Assembly: GCA_028687275.1 (NCBI GenBank)
Contig: JAQUAK010000001.1
Span: 164,213 to 228,212, forward strand
DNA from: Patescibacteria group bacterium
GTDB taxonomy: Bacteria > Patescibacteriota > Patescibacteriia > Patescibacteriales > UBA12465
DNA: 64,000 nucleotides
Direction of reading: 5' to 3'
In this document: positions 1 to 42,092 of the stretch, in pieces
Layout: each line of letters begins with the position of its first letter
How positions within the stretch are numbered: the first letter of the stretch is position 1
Program-made: the position numbers and the translations under genes
The notes under the pieces: generated by a model
What the model was told of the DNA's origin: nothing
The model's input: only the letters and a program-made list of their open reading frames with translations
Databases searched by the model: none

Positions 1-1929
1 CAACGTGTGGGTGGGGAAGTTTTAGATAAGTTTAAAAAAGTTGAACATAGTCGACCAATGATTTCACTTTATGATGCTTTTTCTGAAGATGATATGCGTG
101 ATTGGGTGAAAAGAAATGAAAATTATCTACCTTCTTTACTTAATAAAAAAAATAGTTATTACTGCGAATTAAAGTTAGATGGTTTGGCAGCTAATTTGCG
201 TTATGAAAAAGGCCTGTTTATTCAAGGAGCAACTCGCGGCAATGGTAAGGTGGGCGAAGATATCACTCTTAATCTGCGCACGATTGAGAGTCTACCTTTG
301 AACTTACACCGTCCGGAAGAAAAGGAATTAAAGGCCATTGGTTTTTCAGCTGCAGACATTTCTTTATTCTATGAATTGTTGGATGAAAGTACCATTGAAG
401 TCCGCGGAGAAATAATCATGTTAAAGGAAACTTTTAAAGAGTTAAATTTAAAATATGCTCAAGCTGGGAAACCCTTGTTAGCTAATACTCGTAATGGGGC
501 GGCCGGTTCACTGCGTCAGCTTGATCCAAAAATAGCGGCTGAGAGAAAGTTACATTTTTTTGCTTATGATATTATTTTAGGTAACTATGAACGGGGTGAA
601 ATATTACATAATCGCGCTCAAGCTGATTTATTAGTTGAGCTTTTGGGTTTTAAGCGGGTGAAGAATAATAAGATTGGTGCTGGCTTAGATGAGGTCTTTT
701 CTTTTCAAAAGAAATGGGAAAAACAAAAAGAATCTTTGCCCTTTTTTATTGACGGGGTAGTAGTTAAATATGATGACTTAGACTTGTGGAATCAGCTAGG
801 TGTCGTGGGTAAGGCTCCTCGTTATATGATGGCCTATAAGTTCTCAGCCGAACAAGCAACCACTAAGCTTTTAGATGTTGTCTGGCAGGTGGGACGAACA
901 GGAGTATTAACACCAACAGCAATTTTAGAACCAGTTAACTTGGGCGGGGTGACGGTTGCTCGTTCAACTTTACATAACTTAGATGAAATTAGACGTCTAG
1001 ATTTATTTTTAGGTGATACGGTGATTGTGGAAAGAGCAGGGGATGTGATTCCAAAAATAGTTTCAGTACTAACTAATTTACGTATTGGTAAAGAGAAGAA
1101 AATAACAGTTCCGACTCATTGTCCGCGTTGTGATGCTGAAATTAGTAAAGAAGAAGGAGCCGTTGCTTATCGTTGTTTAAATAAAAACTGTTACGCTATT
1201 AGTTTAAGAAAATTATCACACTTTGCTTCTAAGGGGGCAATGGATATTGAGGGTTTGGGCCCTAGAATTGTCGAGACTTTAGTGACTGAAGGTTTGCTCG
1301 AAGATGCGGCTGATATTTTTCGTCTACGCGCCGAAGATCTTCTTGGTTTAGAAGGTTTTGGTGATAAGAAAATTGCTAAGCTCTTAGCTGCCATTAATGA
1401 AAGAAGATCAGTAGCTTTAAGCCGCTTTATTTTTGCTTTAGGTATTTTGCATATTGGCGAAGAAAGCGCCCAGACAATCGCCTTGGAGTTAAGTAGTCGT
1501 TTAAAAGGAGAGTTAATTAAGCCTTCAGTGTTATTGAAGACAGCTTTGTCTATTAATTTTGAAGCCTGGACAAATTTGAATGATATTGGCCAGGTAGTGG
1601 CGCAAAGTTTGGTTGATTATTTTAATTTTAAGGAAACTGAGAGCTTAATGCTGAAATTTGAACAGTTTGGTCTTAACTTATTGCCGCCACTTAGCACTAG
1701 TGGTCATCTAGAGGGCAAGAGCTTCGTTTTAACGGGTTCTTTGCTTAGTTTGACAAGACAGGAGGCAAAAGATAAAATTAAAGCCAAGGGAGGGAAAACT
1801 AAGGAAAGTGTCAGCGCTTTACTTGATTATTTAGTACTTGGAGTTGAACCTGGTTCAAAGTTAGAGACTGCTCGTAAATTAGGGGTGAAAATATTAAGTG
1901 AAGAGGATTTTTTAAAGTTAGTGCAATAA
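1..1929 (+). CDS. ligA: NAD+-dependent DNA ligase, 5' end cut by window edge
   Basis: Frame is open from base 1. Adenylation motif ELKLDG, Zn finger CPRCDAEISKEEGAVAYRCLNKNC, HhH region, C-terminal BRCT-like GKSFVLTGSL. Confidence 0.95.
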   Translation, partial: QRVGGEVLDKFKKVEHSRPMISLYDAFSEDDMRDWVKRNENYLPSLLNKKNSYYCELKLDGLAANLRYEKGLFIQGATRGNGKVGEDITLNLRTIESLPLNLHRPEEKELKAIGFSAADISLFYELLDESTIEVRGEIIMLKETFKELNLKYAQAGKPLLANTRNGAAGSLRQLDPKIAAERKLHFFAYDIILGNYERGEILHNRAQADLLVELLGFKRVKNNKIGAGLDEVFSFQKKWEKQKESLPFFIDGVVVKYDDLDLWNQLGVVGKAPRYMMAYKFSAEQATTKLLDVVWQVGRTGVLTPTAILEPVNLGGVTVARSTLHNLDEIRRLDLFLGDTVIVERAGDVIPKIVSVLTNLRIGKEKKITVPTHCPRCDAEISKEEGAVAYRCLNKNCYAISLRKLSHFASKGAMDIEGLGPRIVETLVTEGLLEDAADIFRLRAEDLLGLEGFGDKKIAKLLAAINERRSVALSRFIFALGILHIGEESAQTIALELSSRLKGELIKPSVLLKTALSINFEAWTNLNDIGQVVAQSLVDYFNFKETESLMLKFEQFGLNLLPPLSTSGHLEGKSFVLTGSLLSLTRQEAKDKIKAKGGKTKESVSALLDYLVLGVEPGSKLETARKLGVKILSEEDFLKLVQ

Positions 1930-1935
1930 AAAATA

Positions 1936-1961
1936 CCTCTTCCGCAGAAGAGGCATTTTTT
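1936..1961 (+). terminator. Rho-independent terminator after ligA
   Basis: Stem cctcttc / gaagagg with loop cgca, followed by a T run. Confidence 0.6.
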
Positions 1962-2031
1962 CCAGATACAGGAACAACAATTGATACTGTTTATATTATA
2001 ATATATTTAGAAAAATAGTCAATTTGTTTTT

Positions 2032-2118
2032 TGGCGGAGAGCAGAGGAGTCGAACCTCATTCCTATCGGAACCAGACAAGTATCAACTGTTGATGTTAAC
2101 CGTAACATTTTACTCTCC
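2032..2118 (-). tRNA. Non-canonical tRNA-Sec-like (8/4, allo-tRNA-type) gene with apparent GAU anticodon, long variable arm, G73 and encoded CCA
   Basis: Hand fold of the reverse complement: GGAGAGTA/TGCTCTCC 8-bp acceptor, ATGTTA-CGGT-TAACAT D arm, loop TTGATAC, variable arm TTCC-GATA-GGAA, T arm GAGG-TTCGACT-CCTC, then G-CCA. Confidence 0.6.
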
Positions 2119-2166
2119 GACCAATTTATAGTAGCAAAAACCACATGAAGCTAGTGTAATAATTTT

Positions 2167-2445
2167 ATGAAATTCAAAACTGCCGACATACAACATATTG
2201 CTGATTTAGCTCGTCTGGACTTAACTCCGGCTGAGTTGAGTATGTATGGAGAGCAGTTGTCAGCTATTACTGCTTATATTGATCAACTGCAGGAGGTAAA
2301 AACAGAGGTGGTAATTAATAATACAGATTTACATAATGTTTGGCGTGAGGATACAGTGCTTGATTGGGAAGATGCAGGCAAGCAGATAGCTTTAGCACAA
2401 GGAGAGCGAGAAGGGGGCTTATTAAAAGTTAAACGTGTTTTATAA
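2167..2445 (+). CDS. gatC: Asp/Glu-tRNA amidotransferase subunit C
   Basis: 92 aa. N-terminal IQHIADLARLDLTPAEL pattern typical of GatC. Sits immediately upstream of gatA. Confidence 0.85.
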   Translation: MKFKTADIQHIADLARLDLTPAELSMYGEQLSAITAYIDQLQEVKTEVVINNTDLHNVWREDTVLDWEDAGKQIALAQGEREGGLLKVKRVL

Positions 2446-4689: not shown

Positions 4690-4779
4690 GGAGAGTTCGC
4701 ATAGTGGTCGAGTGCGCTCGCTTGGAAAGCGGGTATACCTTAATCGGTATCAAGGGTTCGAATCCCTTACTCTCCGCCA
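4690..4779 (+). tRNA. tRNA-Ser (anticodon GGA), canonical class II 7/5 cloverleaf with encoded CCA
   Basis: GGAGAGT-TC-GCAT..GTGC-G-CTCGC-TTGGAAA-GCGGG, long variable arm ATACC..GGTAT, AAGGG-TTCGAAT-CCCTT, ACTCTCC-G-CCA. Confidence 0.9.
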
Positions 4780-4933: not shown

Positions 4934-5992
4934 TTATCTTTTCTTATATCTAGTTGTTCTACCCACACCAATCCGCTCAATCCACTTTAATTGCAGTAAT
5001 TTATTTAAGACCTGATTAATTGTCGGTCTAGGAATACCAGTTGTCTGAGAAATTTCTAGCGGAGTAACAACCCCATCTTGTTTTGATATATATTCCCAAA
5101 CGATATCTTGTTGTGGCGACAAAAGACGGGCCACCTCTTCATGAGAAATTATGTTAATAGCCTTTTCTGATTGTTCCAAGATGATCTTCAAGAAAAAAGT
5201 TAACCAGGCAGTGATATCTTCCTTGTCTGTTCGTAAAGTTTTTTGGCTAGCTCTTAGGGCAATATAATATTCAGGTTTATTCTCTTCAATCAATTTCTCT
5301 TGAGAGACATAAGGCATATATTCATAGCCATGTTGCAACATTAAAAGATTACTTAATACTCTGGATAATCTGCCATTACCATCAGTAAACGGATGGATGT
5401 GTAAAAACTCCACTAGAAAATTTCCAATGATAATTAATGGATGAGCTGATTTTTCTAAAAAAGCAGTTTGTGTCCATTCAACTAACTCTTGCATTTCTTT
5501 TGGTGTTAGCCAAGGAGTTGTTGTGTCAAATAATATTTCTATCGGTTCGCCAGTTGGTGACACCATCGCTACTTTATTTTCATCTTTTTTATATTCACCA
5601 CGATGCAATTCATCTTTCTCGGAATATTTTAACAGTTCACGATGAAAAAATTTAATTGTACTTTCGGCAAAGGGGATTGATTTGTATGATTCAAAAACAT
5701 TAGTTAGTAAATCAAAATAACCGCGTGCTTCTTGTTTGTCGCGGTCTTTAAATTTTTTCATGGAGAGTCCTCTCATTAATCGTTCTACATCTTCATCTGA
5801 CAAATTTGATCCTTCGATTCTAGTTGAAGCTCCGGTTGAAGTAATTAAAATAGATTTTTTCAAATTACCAAGAGTTTGTTGATCTAGTTTAGCGCCATTT
5901 ACCCATTTGCTCTTTAACACATCTATCTTATTAACTAACTCAAGAATATTTTGTGGAAGTTTATTTATTCTATTGTCGAATTTATTATACAT
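4934..5992 (-). CDS. Fic family protein (probable AMPylase) with an intramolecular inhibitory motif and a C-terminal winged-helix domain
   Basis: Fic motif HIHPFTDGNGRLSR. The upstream STRIEG matches (S/T)xxxE(G/N). C-terminal HTH-like tail. Start chosen at MYNKFDNR; the track ORF extends to 6088 through low-complexity AT-rich sequence. Confidence 0.85.
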   Translation of the reverse strand: MYNKFDNRINKLPQNILELVNKIDVLKSKWVNGAKLDQQTLGNLKKSILITSTGASTRIEGSNLSDEDVERLMRGLSMKKFKDRDKQEARGYFDLLTNVFESYKSIPFAESTIKFFHRELLKYSEKDELHRGEYKKDENKVAMVSPTGEPIEILFDTTTPWLTPKEMQELVEWTQTAFLEKSAHPLIIIGNFLVEFLHIHPFTDGNGRLSRVLSNLLMLQHGYEYMPYVSQEKLIEENKPEYYIALRASQKTLRTDKEDITAWLTFFLKIILEQSEKAINIISHEEVARLLSPQQDIVWEYISKQDGVVTPLEISQTTGIPRPTINQVLNKLLQLKWIERIGVGRTTRYKKR

Positions 5993-6116
5993 AATCTTAT
6001 ATAAGTTATATATTAGATTATATAAGATTATGTATGAAATTGCAAGAGCAGACCAGAATACACCCGAGTTTTTAGTAGTTATATTCAAGATTATTAGCTA
6101 ATATGAAATAAAATAA

Positions 6117-6160
6117 AGTATCGGAGCGACCCACTTAGTTCGAATCGCTCACTCTCCGCA
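6117..6160 (+). repeat. Displaced, diverged tRNA-Ser 3' portion (att-like)
   Basis: GTTCGAATCGCTCACTCTCCGCA (6138-6160) compared with the tRNA 3' end GTTCGAATCCCTTACTCTCCGCCA. A strong terminator follows directly. Confidence 0.6.
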
Positions 6161-6165
6161 CACAG

Positions 6166-6203
6166 GGACGAGGTGAGCCTAAAAGCTCATCTCGTCCTTT
6201 TTT
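6166..6203 (+). terminator. Strong Rho-independent terminator after the tRNA fragment
   Basis: 13-bp stem ggacgaggtgagc / gctcatctcgtcc followed by T6. Confidence 0.65.
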
Positions 6204-6529
6204 ATGGAGCTTTTTGAAAGTTCGAACGTGCTCATTTTAGTGTTTAGGAGTTTCTGTGATTTTTGTATTGGTAGTAGCTATTTAAAGGTTAATATTTCAA
6301 TTTTTTCATCGTTTAGAAAAAAGTTCGAACCGAGTGAAGAAAATATCTCTCTTTTCTCTTCGGCGTCTCTTTTTAAGAATTTATTTAGACCGTGGCAAGA
6401 CAGTTCAAAAGTTTTCTTGGTAAGTTCTAATACCGATGAAAAGCCCGACTAACTTTCTTGTCCATTTTTGACTTTTAGGTGTTTTTATCTTAGAATATAG
6501 TTATCTAAAATTTTAATAAAATTGTTAAA

Positions 6530-8221
6530 ATGGAAACTTTTAAAAATAAAATTGCAGAAAGTTTAGCAAAAAAAACAAATATTGATTTTAATATTTTAAG
6601 TGAAGTAATAGAAGTTCCTACAAATGAAGAATTTGGTGATTTTTCTTTTCCATGTTTTCAATTATCAAAAATATTAAAAATTGCCCCAACAATTGTCGCT
6701 AAATCAATAGCTGAAGATTTAGAAATAAAAGGAATAGAAAAAATTGAAGCCATAGGCCCTTATATTAATTTTTTTATTGATAAGAAGAATCTGGCTAATG
6801 TAGTGATTAAGAACATTTTAAAGAAAGGAGATAAATACGGGTCTTCTTTAGTTGGCATCGGGAAAACAGTGGTAATTGATTTTTCTTCGGTAAATATTGC
6901 AAAACCTTTTCATATTGGACATCTTAAATCTACTGCAATTGGGAACTCTTTATATAAAATTTATTCATTTTTAGGCTATCAGTGTGTTGGCGTTAATCAT
7001 GTTGGTGATTGGGGCACACAATTTGGAAAATTAATTGTAGCTTTTAAGAAATGGGGAGATGATAAAAAAAAATATTCTGTAAAAGATTTAGTTAGTCTTT
7101 ATGTTAAATTTCATAAAGAAGCAGAAAAGGACGAGGGGTTAAATGAGGAGGCAAGAGGTGTCTTCAAAAAATTAGAGGCTAACGAGATTGAGTACGTATC
7201 TCTTTGGAGGATGTTCAGAGAATTAAGTTTGAAAGAGTTTAAAAGGGTTTATAAACTATTAAATATTAAATTTGATTCTTGGAATGGCGAAAGTTTTTAT
7301 AATGATAAAGTTGGAGATGTTGTTGCAATGTTGGAGGAAAAAAAAATGTTGGAAAAAAGTCGGGGTGCTTACATAGTTGATCTTGAAAAATTTAATATGC
7401 CCCCATGTATTGTTAAAAGAAGCGATGGGGCTTCTCTTTATGCAACTAGAGATTTAGCGGCAATATTTTATAGAAAAAAAGAATATAATTTTTACAAAAC
7501 TTTATATGTTGTTGGCAACGCTCAACAATTGCATTTTAAACAGATATTTAAAGTTGTTGAATTAATGGGTTTTGGTTGGGCAGACGACTTAATACATGTT
7601 GATTTTGGAACCGTGAGTCTTCAGGAAGGTGCAATGAGCACGAGAAAAGGAATTGTAGTTTATTTAGAAGATGTATTAAATGAATCTATAATAAAAGTAA
7701 ATGAGATTTTAAAGAATAAAGGTTTAACAAGCACTGAGCAGAATAGTTTGGCAAAAAAGATAGGAATTGGAGCAGTAATTTTTAGTGCATTATTTGTAGG
7801 TAGACAGAGCGATTCTACTTTTTTGTGGGAAAAGGTTTTAAATTTTGAAGGAGACTCATCCCCGTATGCTCAGTATACTTATGTTAGAATTAGAAGCCTT
7901 ATTAAAAAGGTTAACAAAAATATTAATAATAATATTAATTATTCCTTGCTTTGCCATGAAAATGAACTCTCATTATTAAAACTGTTGTCAGAATTTCCTA
8001 ACGTAATTACAGAGGCGGCCTCAAGATACGAGCCGTCTGTTGTCGCGCGATATGTAATTGAGTTGGCAAAATATTTTAATAAGTTTTATCATAATTGCCC
8101 TGTAATTAATTTAGAGAATGAAGATCTTCAAAACGCTCGCGTCTCATTATGTGTAGCTACTAGTATTGTTATTAAGAGCGGTTTGAATCTATTAGGTGTC
8201 GATTGCCCAGAAAAAATGTAA
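6530..8221 (+). CDS. argS: Arginine--tRNA ligase, first gene of the AT-rich operon
   Basis: 563 aa. Class I HIGH-type PFHIGHLKST, MSTRKG (the ArgRS KMSKS equivalent), N-terminal Arg_tRNA_synt_N-like region and C-terminal DALR-like anticodon-binding region. Confidence 0.9.
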   Translation: METFKNKIAESLAKKTNIDFNILSEVIEVPTNEEFGDFSFPCFQLSKILKIAPTIVAKSIAEDLEIKGIEKIEAIGPYINFFIDKKNLANVVIKNILKKGDKYGSSLVGIGKTVVIDFSSVNIAKPFHIGHLKSTAIGNSLYKIYSFLGYQCVGVNHVGDWGTQFGKLIVAFKKWGDDKKKYSVKDLVSLYVKFHKEAEKDEGLNEEARGVFKKLEANEIEYVSLWRMFRELSLKEFKRVYKLLNIKFDSWNGESFYNDKVGDVVAMLEEKKMLEKSRGAYIVDLEKFNMPPCIVKRSDGASLYATRDLAAIFYRKKEYNFYKTLYVVGNAQQLHFKQIFKVVELMGFGWADDLIHVDFGTVSLQEGAMSTRKGIVVYLEDVLNESIIKVNEILKNKGLTSTEQNSLAKKIGIGAVIFSALFVGRQSDSTFLWEKVLNFEGDSSPYAQYTYVRIRSLIKKVNKNINNNINYSLLCHENELSLLKLLSEFPNVITEAASRYEPSVVARYVIELAKYFNKFYHNCPVINLENEDLQNARVSLCVATSIVIKSGLNLLGVDCPEKM

Positions 8222-8234
8222 TAAGTTTAAGAAT

Positions 8235-9506
8235 ATGAAAAAATACAAATCAAAAAATGTTAATATCTGGGCTAGTAATGGTTTTGAGATGGATAACCAA
8301 TTAATTGAAATTATTGAGAGAAAAGGTGTCGGACATCCAGATACTATTTGCGATATTCTCGCCGAGAGAATATCTCAACAATATTCAAAATATTGTATTG
8401 ATCATTTTGGGGTGATTTTAAGGCACATGGTTGATAAAATTGCTATATTGGGAGGAAAGTCAAATGTAACTTTTGGTGGAGGTGAAATGATAGAGCCTAT
8501 TCGAATACTTTTAAATTGCCGGTTCACTAAAAATGTTGGTGATAAAAATATTCCTTATTTAAGTATAAGCAAGAAGGTGATATATGATTTTTTTAAGGAG
8601 ATAATGCCAGAATTTGATTCAAAAAAATGGATAAAAATAGTTAATAATATTCATTTTTCTCAAGGTCCTGGTGTAGTTTACGAGTCAGACGGCAAAACAA
8701 AAAATGAAAGAGAATATTTTTTTGCTGCTCCAGAAAAAGATTACTTGAGGCATCATGGTAATAATGCCCGATCTAATGACACTTCAACGGCAGTTGCTTA
8801 CTCTCCTCTTAGCAAATTAGAGCAATCAGTTTTGTTTATTGAAAAAAAGTTGAATAGTCAAGAATTCAAACAGAAACACAAATATGTTGGTACTGATATC
8901 AAAGTAATGGCGACTCGAGCTAATAGTGAAATTTTTATTACTGTTTGTGTGCCATTTATTTCTAAATATACCCCCGATTTAGAATTTTATTTAAGTAAAA
9001 AAAGAGAATTATCAAAGATAATAAAAAATGATGTAAAAAAATTTTTTGGGACTACGACAAAATTAGGAGTTTTTATTAATACCAGGGATAATGTATCCAA
9101 TTCTGATCTTTATTTGACATTAATTGGAAGCGCCATTGAAAGTGGCGATGAGGGAGTTGTCGGACGTGGCAATCGATATAATGGCCTAATTACTTTTGCA
9201 AGAAAAATGAGTATGGAGGCGTGTTGTGGTAAAAATCCAGTTTATCATGTAGGGAAAATTTATGCGGCCTGCGCAAAATTAATTTCAGAGAAAATTTATG
9301 AAAGTATGACAATTGAAAACACTGTTTATATGACATCACAAATGGGGAGGCCATTATCTGATCCTTTATGTATTAATATAGAGCTGGCTGTTAGTGATAT
9401 CTCCGATATTCAGCGTAACGAAATTAATTTTATTATTAAAGAACATTTAAATAATTTTAATAGCATAACAAATAGAATAATAGGCGGAGATATAGTACTA
9501 TATTAA
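8235..9506 (+). CDS. Archaeal-type S-adenosylmethionine synthetase homologue (PF01941-like), divergent
   Basis: ERKGVGHPDTICD, NDTSTAVAYSPLS, GTDIKVMA and GDEGVVGRGNRYNGLITFARKMSMEACCGKNPVYHVGKIYA match remembered archaeal MAT blocks. The ATG at 8235 lies 13 nt after the argS stop. Confidence 0.8.
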   Translation: MKKYKSKNVNIWASNGFEMDNQLIEIIERKGVGHPDTICDILAERISQQYSKYCIDHFGVILRHMVDKIAILGGKSNVTFGGGEMIEPIRILLNCRFTKNVGDKNIPYLSISKKVIYDFFKEIMPEFDSKKWIKIVNNIHFSQGPGVVYESDGKTKNEREYFFAAPEKDYLRHHGNNARSNDTSTAVAYSPLSKLEQSVLFIEKKLNSQEFKQKHKYVGTDIKVMATRANSEIFITVCVPFISKYTPDLEFYLSKKRELSKIIKNDVKKFFGTTTKLGVFINTRDNVSNSDLYLTLIGSAIESGDEGVVGRGNRYNGLITFARKMSMEACCGKNPVYHVGKIYAACAKLISEKIYESMTIENTVYMTSQMGRPLSDPLCINIELAVSDISDIQRNEINFIIKEHLNNFNSITNRIIGGDIVLY

Positions 9507-10421
9507 ATGAGAAATTTTATTAATTACAATAATACTGATTTTGAAAATTTAACCGATGGTGTCATCACCAAGGAATTAGAGGAAAAATTTCATTTTGAAA
9601 TCATCTCCATGTCCCATATTGATACCGGACATGTGAATAAATGTGTTGTCGTTGAAACACAAGAGAATACTTTTTTTTGTAAAATTTCCCCCTTGTGGTA
9701 TAAAAAGTCTTTATCAAGGGAAAAATGGTGTCTAAATAAATTATTAACTAGAAAGGTATTGGTGCCAAAAATAGTTGGTTTGGTGGAAGATAATAATGAG
9801 AATATTCCCGGTCATGAAATACTTGTTTTGGAATATATTCCTGGTAAATTAATAAGCCAGTTGCCAAATATCTCAGATGATATTTTAGAAAAAATTAGTA
9901 AAGTATATTGTTGTCTACATTCCTTTGAAGTTAAAAAATTTGGATGGTTAGACCCTAACTTTATTGGAGATAAAGATGGATGGTTGGATTTTTTATTAGA
10001 TATAGAAAATTTAGATTTATGTAGGTCTATTTCTAAGGAATTAAATAAAAAAATAAATTTTCTTTTAAATAATTTAAAGAAATTTGATTTTAAAAGTTTA
10101 AAAAATGGGCGCTTGCTTTACGGAGATTTTAATTTAGATAATTTTATTTTATCTTTGTCAGGCGAAATTTATGCCTTAGATTTTCAAAATTGTTTTAGTG
10201 GCGACCCTCTTTATGATTATTCCATTATTATTGATAAATACCCGTCATTTGTTAAATTTTTAAATTCTGAACAAAAAATACAAAAGAGACTTCTTAAATT
10301 ATATACATTGCGTTATTTACTCACAAGAATCTCTTATTTTATACAAAAAAATGATTTTGAATTGACTAATTTTTATATAAAAAGGTTTAATTCCGTTTAT
10401 CAAAAATTAAATATTATTTAA
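9507..10421 (+). CDS. APH/choline-kinase-fold small-molecule kinase
   Basis: Brenner-like YGDFNLDNFIL followed by ALDFQ. ATG directly abuts the upstream stop. Confidence 0.6.
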   Translation: MRNFINYNNTDFENLTDGVITKELEEKFHFEIISMSHIDTGHVNKCVVVETQENTFFCKISPLWYKKSLSREKWCLNKLLTRKVLVPKIVGLVEDNNENIPGHEILVLEYIPGKLISQLPNISDDILEKISKVYCCLHSFEVKKFGWLDPNFIGDKDGWLDFLLDIENLDLCRSISKELNKKINFLLNNLKKFDFKSLKNGRLLYGDFNLDNFILSLSGEIYALDFQNCFSGDPLYDYSIIIDKYPSFVKFLNSEQKIQKRLLKLYTLRYLLTRISYFIQKNDFELTNFYIKRFNSVYQKLNII

Positions 10422-10426
10422 ATAAG

Positions 10427-11086
10427 ATGTATAAAGGCAATTTATTCAACTATATTAAAACAGGACAAGAGATTTCTTTTTATTTAGTTAGACATGGAGA
10501 ATCAGCAACTAATATGGATAGTAGTTTATTTTTATCTAATTGCGATTACCCCATGACTAAAAAGGGCGTCAGCCAAATCAAAAAATTAGGGGTGAACATG
10601 GACAAAAATATTAATAAATTTAATTATATTTTTTGTTCGTCTATGTTAAGATCGCGTCAAACAAGTAATATTTTAGCTAAACAATTTCATTTAAATACAA
10701 AAAATATCTACGTTAGCACTAATCTTAATGAACTTAATATTGGTGAGTGGAATAATAAGAAGAAAAAAGAGTGTTTAAGCAACAGGAATAAGGGCAAACT
10801 TTTTGATTTAGACAAGTGGTTTTCAACTTTTGAGGGAGAATCGGGGATTAACTTACAAAATAGAGCTCTGCAATGGATCGAATCGGAGATATTAGCTTTA
10901 AAAATAACAAAAGATACTAAAATTTTAGTATGTGCTCATAGCTATTGGATTAAGTTATTTTTGCAGTTGATTTTTAATTTTGATTATAAATATGTAAATA
11001 AAATAAAAATTGATTATGCTAGTGTATCCTTATTAAAGTTAAATGATGAGGGATGGAGCCTTGAGTATCTTAATAATAAATTCTAG
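10427..11086 (+). CDS. Histidine phosphatase (phosphoglycerate mutase superfamily)
   Basis: N-terminal LVRHGES (RHG motif) and a distal CAHSYW histidine. Confidence 0.7.
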   Translation: MYKGNLFNYIKTGQEISFYLVRHGESATNMDSSLFLSNCDYPMTKKGVSQIKKLGVNMDKNINKFNYIFCSSMLRSRQTSNILAKQFHLNTKNIYVSTNLNELNIGEWNNKKKKECLSNRNKGKLFDLDKWFSTFEGESGINLQNRALQWIESEILALKITKDTKILVCAHSYWIKLFLQLIFNFDYKYVNKIKIDYASVSLLKLNDEGWSLEYLNNKF

Positions 11087-11122
11087 CATCATTAAAATAG
11101 TCATTATTAAAAAATAATTAAT

Positions 11123-11797
11123 ATGAAGTCAAATTTTGTTTTATTAAAAATTTATTGGGACAACTTTATTAAGGTTAATCATTTAAATAAAGATCAATTA
11201 TTTAATAATTTTGAAAAGAACCATTTTAATTTTTTAAATAATATATTTAATAAAATTTTAAATACCAATGGCAGTATAGTTGAATGTGGTATTGGTTACG
11301 GAAAAAGTTTTTTAATCTTTTCCGAACTAATAAAATCAAATAAAGTAGACAAGAATTTGTGGGGGTTTGATTCGTTCGAGGGGTTCCCTGAACCTAGTGA
11401 TTTTGATAAATCTAGCAGAAATCCCCAGAAAGGCGAGTGGGGGAAATCATCACCAAAGTTAATAAAAAATCTTTTAAGAAATATCGAAGAAAATAATTCT
11501 CATTTAAAAAATGTAAATATTGTAAAAGGTTTCATAGACAAAACCTTACCAAAGTATAAAAATAATATTTGCTCAATATCCTTATTGCATCTAGATTTAG
11601 ATCTTTATGATTCATATAAAACAGCATTAGAAAATTTATGGGAAATTGTTATAAAAGGAGGTGTTGTAATATTTGATGAATATAGACATCCAAAATGGCC
11701 TGGAGCAACCATGGCAATAGATCAATTTTTTAAAAATAAAGGACAAGTGATCATAAAAGATAATCAATCTAACAGGCATTATTTGATAAAAAAATAA
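11123..11797 (+). CDS. TylF/MycF-like class I SAM-dependent O-methyltransferase
   Basis: ECGIGYGKS, WGFDSFEGFPEP, LHLDLDLYDS, GGVVIFDEY. Confidence 0.65.
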   Translation: MKSNFVLLKIYWDNFIKVNHLNKDQLFNNFEKNHFNFLNNIFNKILNTNGSIVECGIGYGKSFLIFSELIKSNKVDKNLWGFDSFEGFPEPSDFDKSSRNPQKGEWGKSSPKLIKNLLRNIEENNSHLKNVNIVKGFIDKTLPKYKNNICSISLLHLDLDLYDSYKTALENLWEIVIKGGVVIFDEYRHPKWPGATMAIDQFFKNKGQVIIKDNQSNRHYLIKK

Positions 11798-11886
11798 TTT
11801 ACCTTATCATTTTTTGTAGCGATTTTTTGTATTTTATGCCAGTTCCATGATTATAAAAATTTTAGATTGGCTAATATTAATAATAA

Positions 11887-11922
11887 TTTATCAAAAAAGT
11901 TCGAATAGCGCCTCTAACACCC
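11887..11922 (+). repeat. 36-nt direct repeat copy A with tRNA-3'-end-like layout; a hairpin plus T run follows
   Basis: TTTATCAAAAAAGTTCGAATAGCGCCTCTAACACCC is 32/36 identical to the copy at 16893-16928. Confidence 0.7.
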
Positions 11923-12166
11923 CTCAGAGATAGAATAGGCTAATATTAGTCTATTTTTTTGTTGTGACACGGAATAAATACTCTTGTTTTTATTGAATTG
12001 TGACCAGATTGTGACTTAAAAATTTAATGTTTTTGTAATTCAGCTTTTTGCAATTTATCTTATTACACAACAATAAAGAAGAAAATATTTTTAAAAGCGT
12101 ATTATTTAAAGAGATGGTTAAGGCTTTCTTTATCTTATTAATTTGCTTTTAATTAAATACAAATAC

Positions 12167-36742: not shown

Positions 36743-38059
36743 ATGCTTAATCGTCTGTTTTTACAGATTCAAAAAATTACTCCTGCTAAATATCAGTGGA
36801 TATTAGAACACGACGGTTTCCGTCGTTATTTTGCTAATACCGGCTGGATGTTCTTTGGTCAGATGTTTTCTCTTTTGGTGTCTTTTTTTATTGGTGCTTG
36901 GCTCGCTCGTTATTTGGGTCCGGAGAATTATGGAGTTTTGAGTTATGCGGTTGCTTTTGTAGGTTTGTTTGCTTTTATGGCTGATCTGGGAGCGGGAGGG
37001 ATTTTAAGTCGTGAGTTGGTTAAATTTCCTGAGAAGAGAGATGAATTAATGGGTACGGTCTTTAGGATGAAACTTATTGGCGGGGCCTTGGCTATGATTT
37101 TAGCTACAGGAGCGGCGATAATTATAGACATGAATCCTTTGACCCGCTTACTCATCATTGTATTTTCAGTCTCCTCTATTTTACAGGTTTTAAATGTTAT
37201 CAGTATTTATTTCCAGGCGAAGGTAGAAGCTAAGAATAATGTTAGAGCACAGGTAATGGCAACAATCATTTCTTCAATTCTAAAAGTGGCGGTTATTTTA
37301 AGCGGGAAGGGAGTTATTTGGATTATTGTCATCTTTCTATTAGATACTGTTTGGCAAGGTCTGGGGTTTTTATCTGCCTATCTTCGTGAGGGTTTAAAGA
37401 TTAGCGCTTGGCGCTTTAAAAGCTCTTTAGCGCGGACGATTTGGAAAAGTTCCTGGCCCTTAATGCTCGCCTCAGCTGCCGGTTTCATATATCTTAGAAT
37501 TGACCAAGTTATGATTGGTCAAATGTTCAGTAATTATGAAGTTGGTTTATATGCGGCCGCCGTTAAGTTAGTTGAGGTTTGGTATTTTATTCCCGGAATC
37601 ATTGCCGCTTCATTATTCCCGGCTATAGTAAACGCCAAAAAAACTGGAATAGCAGTCTACCGCCAGCGTTTAAAAAATTATTATATATTAATGGCAGTAA
37701 TTTCCGTTTTAATCGCTCTGCCGATTTCTTTATTAGCTCACCCTTTAGTATATTGGTTGTTTGGAGTTAAATTTTTAGCCTCTGTGCCTGTTTTGCAGGT
37801 TTATATATGGTCAAGCTTGGGCTTGTTCTTGGGCTGGGCTGTTAATCAGTATTTAATGGCCGAGGATAGGGTTAAGACTATCTTTGTTATTAATATTTTT
37901 GCTATGATAGTTAATATAGGGCTTAATTTGATACTTATTCCTTTATTTGGTCTAACTGGTGCCGCTTGGGCAACGCTGATATCTTATTTAGTGCTCCCTC
38001 TCGGGGCGTGGATCGCGGAAAAGAGAAGACATAAAATAGTAAATGGTAAAAAAATATAA
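36743..38059 (+). CDS. MOP/Wzx-type polysaccharide flippase
   Basis: 438 aa, about 12 TM, polysaccharide-biosynthesis-protein-like. Confidence 0.8.
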   Translation: MLNRLFLQIQKITPAKYQWILEHDGFRRYFANTGWMFFGQMFSLLVSFFIGAWLARYLGPENYGVLSYAVAFVGLFAFMADLGAGGILSRELVKFPEKRDELMGTVFRMKLIGGALAMILATGAAIIIDMNPLTRLLIIVFSVSSILQVLNVISIYFQAKVEAKNNVRAQVMATIISSILKVAVILSGKGVIWIIVIFLLDTVWQGLGFLSAYLREGLKISAWRFKSSLARTIWKSSWPLMLASAAGFIYLRIDQVMIGQMFSNYEVGLYAAAVKLVEVWYFIPGIIAASLFPAIVNAKKTGIAVYRQRLKNYYILMAVISVLIALPISLLAHPLVYWLFGVKFLASVPVLQVYIWSSLGLFLGWAVNQYLMAEDRVKTIFVINIFAMIVNIGLNLILIPLFGLTGAAWATLISYLVLPLGAWIAEKRRHKIVNGKKI

Positions 38060-38227
38060 ATTAATAATTACTTTTATATTGAATACCCAACATCACCTAA
38101 GATATTAAAGGTTATAATTACTGGTTGTATAAAAAGACGTTGAATAAAAATAGACAATAAACCAATTTAACTTTGGTAAGAATAAAATTTAGAATTTAAT
38201 GATTGTGGCTTTCTAGTATATTATTTT

Positions 38228-38920
38228 ATGAAAACAAAACAAAAAATTGTAGATGATTTCATTTATATAAAATTTAGACGACACACGGCTTCTATATATT
38301 TTATACGTAAATCAATTTTTACTGCATTAAAAGATAATATTAAATATTTGAAAGGAAAATTGTTAGACATTGGTTGCGGCAAGATGCCGTATAAAAATTA
38401 TATTCTTGATAATAGCGAAGTAACTACCTATTTAGGCATAGACATAGACACCGCAATAGTTTACGACTCAAATGTAAAGCCCGATATTATTTGGGATGGC
38501 AAAAATATCCCTGAGGGTAGTAATTGTTTTGATAGTATATTGGCAACAGAGGTTTTAGAGCATTGCCCCGAGCCAGAGGTTATTTTTAAAGAAGCTTTCC
38601 GTGTTTTAAGGGATGGTGGCGTGATGTTTATAACAACACCATTTGTATTTCCTTTGCACGAATCGCCTCATGATGAGTATAGGCTCACTCCTTATTCTAT
38701 AGAAAGAATGGCCAAAAATAGCGGATTTAAACATGTCGATATATTTCCATTAGGGGGTGTAAACGCAGTGTTGGCTCAAGTAATTTTTTCTTATAAAAAT
38801 AAATATATTAAATTATTCCTCATACCACTTATATATTTATTGATTAAATTTGATAAAAAAACAGAAATTTTTAAAGATGGCGTTTTGTTTACCGGAATAT
38901 GCGCTATATTAAAAAAATAA
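38228..38920 (+). CDS. Class I SAM-dependent methyltransferase
   Basis: LLDIGCGKMP motif I and a VLEHC..GGVMFI block. Confidence 0.75.
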   Translation: MKTKQKIVDDFIYIKFRRHTASIYFIRKSIFTALKDNIKYLKGKLLDIGCGKMPYKNYILDNSEVTTYLGIDIDTAIVYDSNVKPDIIWDGKNIPEGSNCFDSILATEVLEHCPEPEVIFKEAFRVLRDGGVMFITTPFVFPLHESPHDEYRLTPYSIERMAKNSGFKHVDIFPLGGVNAVLAQVIFSYKNKYIKLFLIPLIYLLIKFDKKTEIFKDGVLFTGICAILKK

Positions 38921-38924
38921 TTTT

Positions 38925-39851
38925 ATGAACTCGATTAATATTATTTTCTCTTCAGATGATAATTACGCCCAACATTTGGGTGTGACGCTTTGCTCTATTT
39001 TTGAAAATAAAAAAGAAGATTATTTGATTAATGTTTATGTTATTGATGGTGGAATTTCTCAAGAGAATAAAAATAAATTATTTATATTAGAAAACAGATA
39101 TTCATTTATAATAAATTATCTTCATATTGAAATAGATAATTATAAAGATTTATATATTAGTGATCATATAACGCAAGCTACGTATTATAGAATATTGATT
39201 CCAAATTTATTAAATAAGAAAATTGAAAAAGTATTATATTTGGATTGTGATCTGTTAGTTTTAGGGGATTTGATAGAATTATTTGAAATAGATATATCTA
39301 ATTATTTGGCAGGGGTTATAGAGAATGAGTTAGATGTTATGGATAGATTAGATGTTATGGATAGATTAGACATGGAGGACGGTGATAGATATTTTAATGC
39401 TGGGGTGATGTTGATTAATATAAAAAAATGGCGTGAAAATAATATTTCTGAACAAACACTCGATTTTATTAATAATAATTCAAATCTTTTAAAATTTTGG
39501 GATCAAGATGCTTTAAATTTTATTTTAAGGAAAAAAATATTATTTTTAGATCAGCATTATAATTTTTTGGTATCAGGCATAGCGAAATCACCAAGTAATA
39601 AGAATGAAAAAAATATTATACCCAGAGTGGTGCACTATGTGGGCAAATTAAAACCATGGCATTTTTTATATTGTGGTCCCTATAAAAAATTATATTATCA
39701 ATGCTTATGTAAAACACCCTGGAAAAATTATAAATATCCTGATTTAAATATAAAAAATATATTTAAAAAATTATTTTTTTGTTTTGTTCCTATTAGATAT
39801 ATAGAAATATTGGTTAAATTAAACAAACATATTATTCAAAGATTTGACTAA
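38925..39851 (+). CDS. Family 8 glycosyltransferase (LgtC/RfaJ-like)
   Basis: SSDDNYAQHLGV, LYLDCDLLVL (DxD), YFNAGVMLINIKKWRE. Confidence 0.8.
   Translation: MNSINIIFSSDDNYAQHLGVTLCSIFENKKEDYLINVYVIDGGISQENKNKLFILENRYSFIINYLHIEIDNYKDLYISDHITQATYYRILIPNLLNKKIEKVLYLDCDLLVLGDLIELFEIDISNYLAGVIENELDVMDRLDVMDRLDMEDGDRYFNAGVMLINIKKWRENNISEQTLDFINNNSNLLKFWDQDALNFILRKKILFLDQHYNFLVSGIAKSPSNKNEKNIIPRVVHYVGKLKPWHFLYCGPYKKLYYQCLCKTPWKNYKYPDLNIKNIFKKLFFCFVPIRYIEILVKLNKHIIQRFD
39331..39366 (+). repeat. In-frame 18-bp tandem duplication inside the GT8 gene
   Basis: tagatgttatggatagat occurs twice (LDVMDR LDVMDR), followed by a partial third unit. Confidence 0.8.
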
Positions 39852-39910
39852 TCATAGATATGTTTTTAACAATATTAAATCTTTATTATAAATAAGTAAT
39901 AAATATAGTT

Positions 39911-40864
39911 ATGAATCAATTTAATACTCCAATTTTATTTCTAATTTTTAATCGTTTAGAAACGACTAAGCAAGTTTTTGCTGCTATCCGCGAACGTCGT
40001 CCTAAATATTTATTTGTTGCTGCCGACGGTCCACGAGACGGTAAGATTGGTGAAGCTGAAATTTGTGAGGAAGTGCGGCAGTTTGTAAAAGGTAGTATTG
40101 ATTGGGATTGCGAAGTAAAAACTTTGTTTAGAGGTGAAAATCTAGGGTGTAAGTTGGCAGTTAGCGGTGCTATTAATTGGTTTTTTTCTCAGGTTAAAGA
40201 GGGGATTATTTTAGAGGACGATTGTCTGCCTGATCAATCATTTTTTCCCTTTTGTGAAAATTTATTAGAAAAATATAGGAACAGTAATGAGGTGGCGATA
40301 ATTAGTGGCAATAATTTCAATAACAAAGAAATTAGCGAAGCCAGTTATTATTTTAATAAAATACCTCATATTTGGGGCTGGGCTACTTGGCGCAGGACTT
40401 GGGAAAAGTATGATGTTAAAATGTCGGAATATCAAAATTTTAAAAAGGAAGAAAAAATAAAAAATATTTGGAGTGATAAGAGAGTGCAAAATTATTGGAT
40501 TAATATTTTTAACGAAGTGTATAATAATAAAATTGATACCTGGGATTATCAGCTAACTTTTTCAATTTTTCTAAATAATAATTTGTGTATTTGTCCGAAT
40601 GTAAATTTAGTATCTAATATCGGTTTTGGAAAAGATTCTACTAATACATTAGTATCAAATAAATCCATAACAAACCTTCCTGTAAATAATATTATTTTTC
40701 CATTAATTCATCCAAAAAAAATAGAATATAATGAAAAAAATGATGATATTATTAATAATTTTCAATTAAAAAACTACAGGTTAAAAAAAGTATTAAAATA
40801 TTTGGGAATTTTTTCACTTGTAAAGAAAGTATACACGCATGTTTTGTCATATTCGCGGCAATAA
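39911..40864 (+). CDS. Putative GT-A fold nucleotide-diphospho-sugar transferase
   Basis: PILFLIFNRLETTKQVF, ILEDDCLP acidic motif. Confidence 0.5.
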   Translation: MNQFNTPILFLIFNRLETTKQVFAAIRERRPKYLFVAADGPRDGKIGEAEICEEVRQFVKGSIDWDCEVKTLFRGENLGCKLAVSGAINWFFSQVKEGIILEDDCLPDQSFFPFCENLLEKYRNSNEVAIISGNNFNNKEISEASYYFNKIPHIWGWATWRRTWEKYDVKMSEYQNFKKEEKIKNIWSDKRVQNYWINIFNEVYNNKIDTWDYQLTFSIFLNNNLCICPNVNLVSNIGFGKDSTNTLVSNKSITNLPVNNIIFPLIHPKKIEYNEKNDDIINNFQLKNYRLKKVLKYLGIFSLVKKVYTHVLSYSRQ

Positions 40865-40880
40865 AATTAAAAGCTGTTCT

Positions 40881-42092
40881 ATGAAAAAAATATTAATTAT
40901 TAATACTACTTTTAACACGGGAGGAGCCGCCCAGATAGCTAAAGAACTATTTAGTCAAATTAGTCCAAATTTTGTTGTATTTTTTGCTTATGGCCGAGGA
41001 TTGAAGATAAAAAATGATCAAATTTATAAATTTGGCAATATTTTTGAAACATTAATTCATATTTTTTTGGTTAGGTTTTTAGGCCTGGAGGGTTTTGGTA
41101 GTTATTTTTCAACTTTAAAATTAATTAGATTTATAGAAAGAGAAAAGTTTGATTTAATTCATTTACATAATCTTCACGGTTATTATTTGAATTTCTTTAT
41201 GTTGATTAATTTTTTGAAGAAAGAAAAAATAGCTATTGTTTGGACGCTGCATGATGAATGGTCGACCACTTGGCTGCCAGCCTACAGAGCTAATATAGAA
41301 AATTCTAGGAGTAATCAGGTGGAATATAATGGTAAAGACGTTTATCCTAGAAACTATTTCCCCTTTTTTAAAAATTTCATGTTTGATAAGAAAGAGAAGT
41401 TATTTTCAAATGGTTGGAACCCAACATTAGTCTGTCCTTCTCAGTGGTTAGCAGATGTCATTGCCACATCGTATTTAAATAAATTTACTTTAAAGATTAT
41501 TTACAATGGGATTGATACTCAAATATTTAAGCCCGTTGATGATAAAAGATTATTAAAAACAAAGAACGGGATCAATCTTAACAAGAAAATTATTTTATTT
41601 GTTGCCGCCAATTTGAATGATAAACGGAAAGGAATTAGTAATATTATTAATGTTGCTAAAATATTAAAAAGTAAAGATTATTTATTTATTGGTATTGGTC
41701 GAGGAGAACTAGATGTTCCTGATAACGTGAAAATTATAAATTATGTTTATGATAAAAATGAATTAGCTGAAATATATGCCTTATCTGATTTATTTTGCTT
41801 TGCTTCATCGGCCGAAACCTTCTTACTGACAGTAGCGGAATCTCTCGCTTGTAGCACCCCTGTTGTTGGTTTTGATATTAAAGTCGTTAGAGAAATATTC
41901 AAAGAAAATGTAGGTATTTTAGTTAAATTAGGGGATGATAAATCTCTCGCTGAAACTATTAATAGATTGCTAGACAATGGAGATGAAAGATTGATTATGG
42001 GTGCTAATGGTAGAAAATTAGTAGTTAATAATTATTCAAAAGAACTATTTTATCAAAATTATAATAATTTATATAATAAGCTACTAAAATGA
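40881..42092 (+). CDS. GT-B (family 4-like) glycosyltransferase
   Basis: N-terminal KILIINTTFNTGGAA and C-terminal E(x7)E-like SAETFLLTVAESLACSTPVV. Start at MKKIL. Confidence 0.8.
   Translation: MKKILIINTTFNTGGAAQIAKELFSQISPNFVVFFAYGRGLKIKNDQIYKFGNIFETLIHIFLVRFLGLEGFGSYFSTLKLIRFIEREKFDLIHLHNLHGYYLNFFMLINFLKKEKIAIVWTLHDEWSTTWLPAYRANIENSRSNQVEYNGKDVYPRNYFPFFKNFMFDKKEKLFSNGWNPTLVCPSQWLADVIATSYLNKFTLKIIYNGIDTQIFKPVDDKRLLKTKNGINLNKKIILFVAANLNDKRKGISNIINVAKILKSKDYLFIGIGRGELDVPDNVKIINYVYDKNELAEIYALSDLFCFASSAETFLLTVAESLACSTPVVGFDIKVVREIFKENVGILVKLGDDKSLAETINRLLDNGDERLIMGANGRKLVVNNYSKELFYQNYNNLYNKLLK

Follow-up and report, generated by a model that had tools for sequence, protein, structure and literature searches.

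The 64,000-nucleotide stretch of Patescibacteria DNA analysed here (contig JAQUAK010000001.1, positions 164,213 to 228,212; hereafter, at its full length, the window) carries an oddly shaped transfer RNA (tRNA) gene with the anticodon GAU, which lies in the 237-nt spacer between ligA and gatC on the strand opposite to these genes, and which is followed 43 nt downstream, on its own strand, by a predicted small RNA (sRNA) whose 5'-terminal seed is complementary to the anticodon arm of that very tRNA (coordinates in Table 1). It is this combination, an allo-tRNA with an antisense RNA of its own, that is described and weighed below. Beyond gatC come gatA, a DsbA-like gene and a canonical tRNA-Ser(GGA); the latter and the GAU gene are the only two tRNAs that ARAGORN finds in the 64 kb. 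A first-pass annotation had described the GAU gene as a cloverleaf with an 8-bp acceptor stem and a 4-bp T stem (8/4) and with serine identity features. Its transcribed reverse complement proved exact to the letter, and ARAGORN calls the gene at identical coordinates, with the anticodon GAT at position 35.

Written as RNA, the gene consists of an 8-bp acceptor stem with a single wobble pair (U7.G), the dinucleotide AA, a 6-bp D stem closing a CGGU loop (AUGUUA-CGGU-UAACAU), an anticodon arm with the loop UUGAUAC, a 14-nt variable arm of 5 bp with a GAUA loop (GUUCC-GAUA-GGAAU), and a 4-bp T stem with the loop UUCGACU that adjoins the acceptor stem, followed by G73 and an encoded CCA; there is almost no leader. 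All the parts drawn in the first-pass annotation were thus found again, as was the likeness of its acceptor to that of tRNA-Ser(GGA), with which it has the 5' strand GGAGAGU in common and whose G1-C72, G2-C71 and A3-U70 it shares. The anticodon stem, by contrast, had to be redrawn: instead of the 5 bp with an A.C mismatch read earlier, the family consensus gives 6 bp (C-G, A-U, then a C bulged from the 3' strand, then A-U, C-G, A-U and G.U). A promoter-like extended -10 element precedes the gene; the consensus promoter scan does not call it and no -35 is present, and it is kept as TGnTAnnAT in most sister species, as seen in spacer alignments (TGCTATGCT in L230).

Evidence from the single sequence is insufficient to settle this fold. 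At gathering thresholds the gene matches no Rfam family, the general tRNA model RF00005 included, and in a permissive search its best match is tRNA-Sec RF01852, with 36.2 bits against a gathering score of 47. Its folding energy is unremarkable (z = -2.4), and the 8/4 cloverleaf, at -24.6 kcal/mol, is not the minimum-energy fold (-27.4 kcal/mol when unconstrained). The likeness to Escherichia coli selC noted in the first-pass annotation is weakly borne out: the sole blastn matches in E. coli are indeed to tRNA-Sec, aligned at 92% identity over 26 nt in the T arm and the 3' strand of the acceptor (E=3). The T-loop motif GGTTCRANTCC occurs three times in the window where 0.07 occurrences are expected, which, together with the covariation in every helix described next, places the parts of this tRNA beyond chance. 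The third occurrence, GGTTCAACTCC, is itself attributed to chance; it lies within the ligA coding region, in antisense orientation and 180 nt away from the allo-tRNA, and has no flanking stems. It is therefore to relatives that the question of the fold had to be put.

These were gathered by a pattern scan of metagenomes (GGAGAGTNAA, six free bases, YGGT, a gap, GGTTCRANTCC) that constrains the odd 5' geometry and the T loop but nothing else. Acceptor pairs 1 to 7 are predetermined by it and hence uninformative, whereas it placed no constraint on the 3' acceptor strand or on the D, anticodon, variable and T helices. The scan returned 102 loci, the majority belonging to the (8/4) tRNA-Ser(GCU) class of Mukai et al. 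(2017). Among 62 distinct tRNAs, the pair 8:65 covaries in 60 (A-U in 49, G-C in 9, U-A in 2), the other two (U.U) being tRNA-Ser genes of canonical 7/5 shape that matched the pattern as well, and the rival 7/5 pair 49:65 fails in 58 (U.U in 49, U.C in 9). Non-Ser anticodons occur in seven distinct genes found by the pattern, the window's own included: GAU in five (window, L104, L134, L153 and L102), AAC in L190 and CAC in L121. The L153 contig has, at another place, an eighth such gene, again with GAU, so that this metagenome-assembled genome of Candidatus Magasanikbacteria has two 8/4 allo-tRNA(GAU) genes 10 kb apart (here L153-A and L153-B); at least two Patescibacteria lineages carry genes of this kind. 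In a viral collection all 8/4 tRNAs had Ser anticodons, and an exact 26-nt search of species-representative genomes, among which this lineage is not represented, gave no match.

When the eight partnered Ser-type genes (the window's and seven metagenome relatives) are folded together, RNAalifold recovers the 8/4 cloverleaf unaided, with its 8-bp acceptor and 4-bp T stems; compensatory double changes are seen in 17 of the 29 pairs and pairing holds in 96.9% of cells, whereas none of 500 shuffles reaches any observed measure and slid partners give 38-54%. Helices were parsed by hand and from the RNAalifold alignment, a MAFFT alignment having been set aside after it misplaced the D-arm gaps. All six D-stem pairs have changed on both sides across the eight relatives, the variable-arm helix is 100% paired with two compensatory pairs, and the extra anticodon-stem pairs (columns 29:48 and 30:47) are kept in 8/8 sequences. 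Each member has G73, U33 and A37 in an anticodon loop of the canonical 7 nt, a D loop containing GG and a T loop of the TPsiC type. The anticodon loop UUGAUAC is identical in the window, L104, L134 and L153-A, with CUGAUAC in L153-B and CUGAUAA in L102; that a GAU-bearing loop is retained in six of eight members while the stems drift argues for selection on the anticodon itself.

Because 8:65 covaries, the 7/5 pairing fails and the 8/4 fold is conserved, the molecule belongs to the allo-tRNAs as defined by Mukai et al. (2017), and there is little doubt that the window holds a genuine gene for one, with the Ser-type features and the GAU anticodon that the first-pass annotation had proposed. The defining features of the class are a branch split 8/4 or 9/3, a D stem that is long and capped by a tetraloop, a long variable arm, G or U at position 73, an anticodon stem of more than the usual length and, for the most part, non-Ser anticodons (PMC5389517); the window tRNA displays them all. 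The shape resembles tRNA-Sec, as had been noticed, yet tRNA-Sec itself was rejected: the anticodon is GAU and not UCA, the 8/4 branch adds up to 12 bp and not to the 13 bp of 8/5, and the RF01852 score falls short.

What accompanies these tRNAs, and does not figure in the first-pass annotation, is more unusual. Beside each of the seven pattern-found non-Ser 8/4 tRNAs, a same-strand stretch of 12-17 nt can pair, through Watson-Crick or G.U pairs, with the anticodon arm of its own tRNA; it lies 105-190 nt upstream in L104, L134, L153, L102 and L190 and 43-50 nt downstream in the window and L121. The second L153 pair makes an eighth case, each of the two L153 sRNA seeds matching only the anticodon stem of its own tRNA. 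By contrast, about 60 distinct Ser-anticodon 8/4 tRNAs gave best runs of 6-13 nt at random positions, the same as shuffled controls, and in 19 distinct viral Ser-anticodon 8/4 tRNAs the complement likewise stays at shuffle level; altogether some 80 Ser-anticodon 8/4 tRNAs have no antisense partner. The complement belongs to an sRNA unit that is found beside all eight non-Ser 8/4 tRNAs and beside all six of the Ala-type tRNA-like genes introduced below (14 modules), and whose parts follow one order: a near-consensus promoter, the seed at the extreme 5' end, a further stretch mirroring either the variable arm or, for L085 and L121, the D arm, and an intrinsic terminator. The promoter matches the consensus at 12/12 positions in L104, 11/12 in the window and 10/12 in both L153 units.

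Across 12 modules the seed helices measure 12-19 bp and comprise 166 Watson-Crick and 11 G.U pairs; they always span the 5' strand of the anticodon stem and most or all of the loop, and the seed sequence covaries with the tRNA arm between species, as was first seen in the spacer alignment. In 7 of 11 modules the helix grows longer once G.U pairs are admitted, but admitting A.C pairs, the equivalent of G.U on the opposite strand, extends it in only 1 of 11; the constraint therefore acts on the tRNA-sense RNA and not on DNA repeats. RNAduplex energies, on which GC content and the GAU loop common to the tRNAs had a confounding influence, were set aside in favour of co-folding, run-length and covariation tests. 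Co-folding, which charges for the opening of each RNA's own structure, gives its greatest gain with the cognate partner in 8 of 11 rows, the exceptions being two sister species that share one seed, and the window. In the window the seed gives a 14-bp run (13 Watson-Crick pairs and one G.U) and is the best complement to the tRNA arm on that strand of the 64 kb. Taken across the modules, the pairing of sRNA and tRNA is probably both real and functional; a tRNA paired with an anti-anticodon-arm sRNA was not found described in the searchable literature, the coverage of which is incomplete.

Two further observations concern individual family members. In L121, on a GC-rich contig that is probably not from Patescibacteria, the downstream sRNA is antisense to nearly the whole 5' half of the 8/4 tRNA(CAC), over about 32 nt and with a co-fold gain of -27 kcal/mol; the sequences hint that the sRNAs may have arisen as inverted copies of the 5' half of the tRNA. 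In the five modules with an upstream sRNA (L104, L134, L153, L102 and L190), a leader motif CGGCGG (GCGGCG in L104) stands 15-20 nt before the allo-tRNA gene and is complementary to the tRNA 3' end CCGCCG, these genes encoding CCG or CCC and not, as in the window, CCA; the arrangement suggests that leader and trailer could form a helix in the precursor.

Table 1. Positions of the allo-tRNA, its sRNA partner, related genes and neighbouring features (window numbering unless a locus is named)
Feature	Position	Strand	Description or basis
8/4 allo-tRNA gene	2032-2118	-	Anticodon GAU, G73, CCA encoded; ARAGORN, sequence, family consensus fold and covariation
Anticodon GAT	2082-2084	-	tRNA positions 35-37, canonical 7-nt loop with U33 and A37; ARAGORN
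tRNA segment complementary to sRNA 5' end	2079-2092	-	Anticodon-stem 5' strand, loop and first base of 3' strand
tRNA promoter-like element	2125-2136	-	Putative extended -10 (TGcTACTAT / TATAAA), ends 6-9 nt before G1; read from the sequence
sRNA promoter	1995-2022	-	Sigma-70, near consensus: TTGACT, 16-nt spacer, TATAAT; 11/12 matches
sRNA	1928-1988	-	Predicted, about 61 nt, ends in terminator; presumed transcript ends
sRNA 5'-terminal seed	1975-1988	-	AGUAUCAAUUGUUG, antisense to anticodon arm
sRNA hairpin	1960-1974	-	UUCCUGUAUCUGGAA, resembles variable-arm antisense
Bidirectional intrinsic terminator	1936-1953	both	Stem with T runs on both strands, ends ligA (+) and the tRNA/sRNA unit (-); terminator scan, kept in sister species
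ligA	7-1929	+	
gatC	2167-2445		
Third T-loop motif	1840-1850	-	Attributed to chance
tRNA-Ser(GGA)	4690-4779		Canonical; ARAGORN
Ala-type tRNA-like RNA, 72 nt	L082 3589-3660; L085 2041-2112; L086 3602-3673; L088 3603-3674	-	
Ala-type RNA with T-loop insert, 85-86 nt	L230 about 2540-2625; L231 about 560-645	-	
8/4 allo-tRNA(GAU) genes of L153	863-949; 11381-11472	-; +	Candidatus Magasanikbacteria
8/4 tRNA(CAC) and downstream sRNA of L121	4600-4800	+	
sRNA-like unit of L093	3577-3716		In the ligA-gatC spacer
Fic/DOC-domain gene	4934-6088	-	Pfam Fic E=4e-14
Large serine recombinase of L084	2415-4097		At the position of the window Fic gene
AT-rich islands	6000-12000; 38000-42000		
ArgRS	6530-8221		In the first island
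AdoMet synthetase	8196-9506		Archaeal type, PF01941; in the first island

The history of the locus could be followed through orthologous loci reached by exact-protein look-ups. The nearest species-representative genomes are of Candidatus Falkowbacteria, with about 61% GatA identity; in relatives at that distance ligA abuts or overlaps gatC, leaving neither spacer nor tRNA. At 71-75% GatA identity the spacer measures 20-140 nt and is free of tRNA-like genes, while relatives with 76-85% have one of 211-252 nt, and the module-bearing spacer occurs only at an identity of at least about 76%. This distribution marks the module as a lineage-restricted insertion into a housekeeping operon. An identical copy of the sequence is present in a second, independent sample (L081). 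Elsewhere, modules of the same build sit in the dnaK/dnaJ and clpP/ftsH spacers, and one copy lies beside a transposase. The ligA-gatC spacer of L093 (74% GatA identity) holds a promoter, an sRNA-like unit and a terminator, the 3' part being homologous to the window sRNA, with no tRNA-like gene and no complementary target within its 6.4-kb locus; by its sequence this unit is an orphan or ancestral sRNA.

What could be the significance of a tRNA whose body and anticodon disagree, and which is encoded next to an RNA fit to open that same anticodon arm? SerRS and AlaRS are the synthetases that charge their tRNAs without reading the anticodon. The preferred reading, to which we assign a probability of about 0.5, is that the window encodes a functional SerRS-type allo-tRNA together with an sRNA that silences it, the two forming a conditional mistranslation or addiction (toxin-antitoxin-like) module. 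The gene, its fold, the complementarity and the transcription signals are there to be read; from them, once both RNAs were expressed, the following course can be imagined. SerRS would charge the tRNA by way of G73, the long variable arm and the acceptor pairs shared with the host's tRNA-Ser, and the serylated tRNA would decode the very common codons AUC and AUU as Ser. The first 14 nt of the sRNA would invade and sequester the 5' strand of the anticodon stem and the loop, thereby opening the arm, and in several members the second sRNA segment might also sequester the variable arm that SerRS needs. A drop in sRNA would then leave the tRNA active. A decoding role fits, since the GAU loop is kept in six of eight members, U33 and A37 are present in all eight, and only bodies of the Ser and Ala type, hence anticodon-blind ones, are used. 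A selfish poison-antidote element fits too, because a consensus sRNA promoter stands against a tRNA promoter with a -10 only, and because the modules are patchy and occupy unrelated housekeeping spacers. That the outcome would be controlled Ile-to-Ser mistranslation or toxicity is a more tentative proposition, on balance doubtful, and slightly more doubtful still is the fully specified version, an RNA-only poison-antidote or conditional recoding pair in which charging is anticodon-blind (by SerRS here, by AlaRS in the sister species) and the sRNA unzips the anticodon arm. Were it true, mistranslation across the proteome would follow whenever the sRNA was lost, for instance because transcription was switched off, the element disappeared or a phage attacked, and this could account for the patchy occurrence of allo-tRNAs, their toxicity in E. 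coli and the diversity of their anticodons.

Several observations weigh against this reading. For the window's own copy of the pairing, a 13-nt chance complement to the arm exists elsewhere in the 64 kb, which is why the case rests on position and covariation, and co-folding of the window pair yields a net gain of only -2.0 kcal/mol, the A/U-rich seed duplex not forming in the model, which is the weakest point for this copy. The sample, eight Ser-type and six Ala-type modules, is small, and seven of the Ser-type genes share the pattern-fixed GGAGAGU acceptor. Some allo-tRNAs (the UAU group) are inactive in E. coli (PMC5389517). Finally, six sister species have a different tRNA-like gene at the same ligA-gatC place, with its own matching sRNA and with flanks homologous to those of the window (the extended -10 of the first gene, the second promoter, the bidirectional terminator). 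This Ala-type RNA has a 7/5 branch and, in G3.U70 and A73, the identity set of alanine. A D stem is missing, the 'anticodon' stem measures 9 bp, the loop (GUUGACA, CUUAACA or AUUGACA) puts C at position 37 and no CCA is encoded; the best Rfam match of this RNA is the tRNA-like domain of transfer-messenger RNA (tmRNA; RF00023) with the whole middle deleted (36-37 bits against 47, E about 1e-11). In L230 and L231 a 13-14-nt hairpin (UCCGCC-AGCC-GGCGGA) is inserted within the T loop and, to judge from its position, should break the tRNA elbow. The sRNA seeds nevertheless track these stems equally well (AAAAUUGACAC with GUGUCAAUUUU in L230; AAAGUUGAC with GUCAACUUU in L086). Ala-type RNAs are unlikely to decode, and the function of the module may therefore not need translation.

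Perhaps, then, the window gene encodes a tRNA mimic that leaves the proteome unchanged, acting as a decoy, sponge or cofactor of a tRNA-binding protein, or simply as the target or sponge of the sRNA; its partner could be one of the synthetases SerRS and AlaRS, EF-Tu, SmpB, a modification enzyme, or a nuclease that attacks the anticodon of tRNA-Ile. The same sRNA arrangement around sister RNAs that lack decoder features (no D stem, C37, the T-loop insert of two lineages, the match to the tmRNA domain) is the chief argument for it, and in its favour are also the conserved bulge in the anticodon stems of the window gene's subgroup and the proposal that some allo-tRNAs are regulatory, some of them being inactive in translation (PMC5389517). 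Yet the anatomy of a decoder is complete in all eight Ser-type members, both identity sets belong to synthetases that ignore the anticodon, a choice that makes sense if charging matters, and other allo-tRNAs decode efficiently in E. coli (PMC5389517), so that a non-translational role, although it is the weightiest of the alternatives, appears rather unlikely.

The remaining alternatives carry much less weight. Recognition by IleRS depends on A73 and a short variable loop, and an ordinary if odd-shaped minor tRNA-Ile, charged by IleRS via GAU and accompanied by a complement that is an accessory to transcription or processing, is accordingly hard to reconcile with the G73 and the 14-nt variable arm seen here; ARAGORN's label, tRNA-Ile, and the conservation of the GAU loop across lineages would suit it, and legitimate 8/4 tRNA-Ser and tRNA-His genes do exist (PMC5389517), but G73 and a long variable arm are serine determinants under the identity rules (PMC5389517), canonical tRNA-Ile(GAU) fails on the missing RF00005 match and the failed 7/5 pairing, the legitimate 8/4 tRNA-Ser genes have no antisense partner, and the gene is absent from close relatives that retain the rest of the locus and is thus dispensable. 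All this makes a tRNA-Ile very unlikely. One may also ask whether the complementarity belongs to the DNA, as an inverted repeat for a recombinase (an invertible promoter) or as the remnant of a mobile element, RNA pairing being incidental, given that the arms flank a promoter and that the modules occupy varied housekeeping spacers, once beside a transposase. In the tRNA-sense transcript, however, almost every mismatch between the arms is a G.U pair, whereas the arms of a DNA repeat should be identical; moreover, recombinase genes are not regularly found next to the modules, an inversion would cut the tRNA gene in two, and each half has its own promoter and terminator, which leaves this explanation highly improbable. 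As for a chance cloverleaf, or a tRNA-Ser or tRNA-Sec pseudogene in decay as the first-pass annotation had allowed, the subthreshold Rfam scores, the modest z-score and a minimum-energy fold other than the cloverleaf are what one would expect of it; set against them, covariation in all five helices, the identical copy in L081 and the conservation of both the sRNA and the transcription signals reduce its probability to almost nothing. Decay, in particular, sits ill with a conserved promoter-to-terminator module and with an anticodon stem stronger than had been supposed.

The surroundings of the module have features of their own. Directly after tRNA-Ser(GGA) the window encodes a Fic/DOC-domain protein with a C-terminal winged-helix domain; at the corresponding position L084 has a large serine recombinase, and rve transposases are near in L088 and L231, so that, from gene content, the 3' side of tRNA-Ser(GGA) looks like an integration hot spot. 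Two AT-rich islands have 25-31% GC against about 36% elsewhere; the first, which starts just past the Fic gene and includes genes for an ArgRS and an AdoMet synthetase, may have been acquired horizontally.

Why should these observations matter beyond one locus? Allo-tRNAs have hitherto been a structural curiosity, with a body that says 'serine' or 'alanine' and an anticodon that says otherwise. The presence of an antisense RNA only beside members with a 'wrong' anticodon is, to our knowledge, the first concrete clue to how they might be tolerated or used. If the tRNA decodes, the module would be a natural, switchable, RNA-only device for mistranslation or addiction; if it does not, tRNA mimic and sRNA would together represent a new class. 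Matched pairs of tRNA and anti-tRNA, two of them in one genome, are potentially useful in synthetic biology, for controllable suppressor tRNAs. The findings also extend allo-tRNAs to the small-genome Patescibacteria.

Comparison with known systems shows where the module is familiar and where it departs. The sister-species RNA recalls the tRNA-like domain of tmRNA (RF00023), with G3.U70, A73, a GAUU..GG..UCGA analogue of the D loop, a 5-bp T arm and no anticodon function, and its sequence looks like a 'mini-tmRNA head'; unlike tmRNA, it is only about 72 nt long and has neither an mRNA-like domain nor pseudoknots. A split, two-piece tmRNA in the sister species, with the sRNA as tag template, was considered and rejected, the downstream sRNA having no conserved reading frame (indels of 1, 2 and 7 nt, not multiples of three). 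A small regulatory RNA located immediately 3' of a tRNA gene and working through base pairs is also known from E. coli, where the 3' external transcribed spacer 3'ETS-leuZ sponges unrelated sRNAs. The window sRNA differs from 3'ETS-leuZ in being complementary to the tRNA itself and in having its own promoter, and in most relatives the unit lies upstream, behind a terminator.

Toxin-antitoxin systems of type I, in which an antisense RNA opposes the mRNA of a toxin, and of type VIII, in which toxin and antitoxin are both RNAs, such as CreTA (PMC8501985), offer a parallel in layout: adjacent genes and a short, strongly promoted antisense RNA as putative antidote. In the modules described here this layout appears as neighbouring genes, an sRNA promoter of its own with 10-12 of 12 consensus matches and co-varying helices of 12-19 bp, throughout 14 modules. 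The putative poison would in both cases act on translation, and the window element, patchy and inserted between genes, looks selfish. CreT, however, sequesters tRNAs on ribosomes and is not itself a tRNA (PMC8501985), whereas in the window the putative poison would be the tRNA and the putative antidote would pair with its anticodon arm.

Among tRNAs, bacterial tRNA-Sec (selC) resembles the window gene in its 8-bp acceptor, its 6-bp D stem with a CGGU-type tetraloop, its long variable arm, G73 and the GGUUCGACUCC T arm. The (8/4) tRNA-Ser(GCU/GGA) genes of Clostridia, rumen and gut bacteria and phages share the GGAGAGUA acceptor, the 4-bp T stem, G73 and the long variable arm, but have Ser anticodons, mostly a 4-bp D stem with a larger loop and no antisense partner. 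With the allo-tRNAs of PMC5389517 the agreement extends to the 12-bp 8/4 branch, the tetraloop D arm, the variable arm, G73, the 6-bp anticodon stem, the non-Ser anticodon and the patchy occurrence. Some of those allo-tRNAs decode efficiently in E. coli, where they are driven by their identity elements and are toxic, and the hosts named for the class are Clostridia, Proteobacteria and Acidobacteria (PMC5389517); Patescibacteria is not among the listed phyla, and neither it nor GAU is mentioned in the main text. The only association reported there is with protein toxin-antitoxin genes, and the words 'antisense' and 'complementary' are absent from the main text. Hence, taken alone, the window tRNA is an allo-tRNA of a known kind in a host that is new relative to PMC5389517; the main difference, and the new part, is the dedicated adjacent sRNA that is antisense to its anticodon arm.

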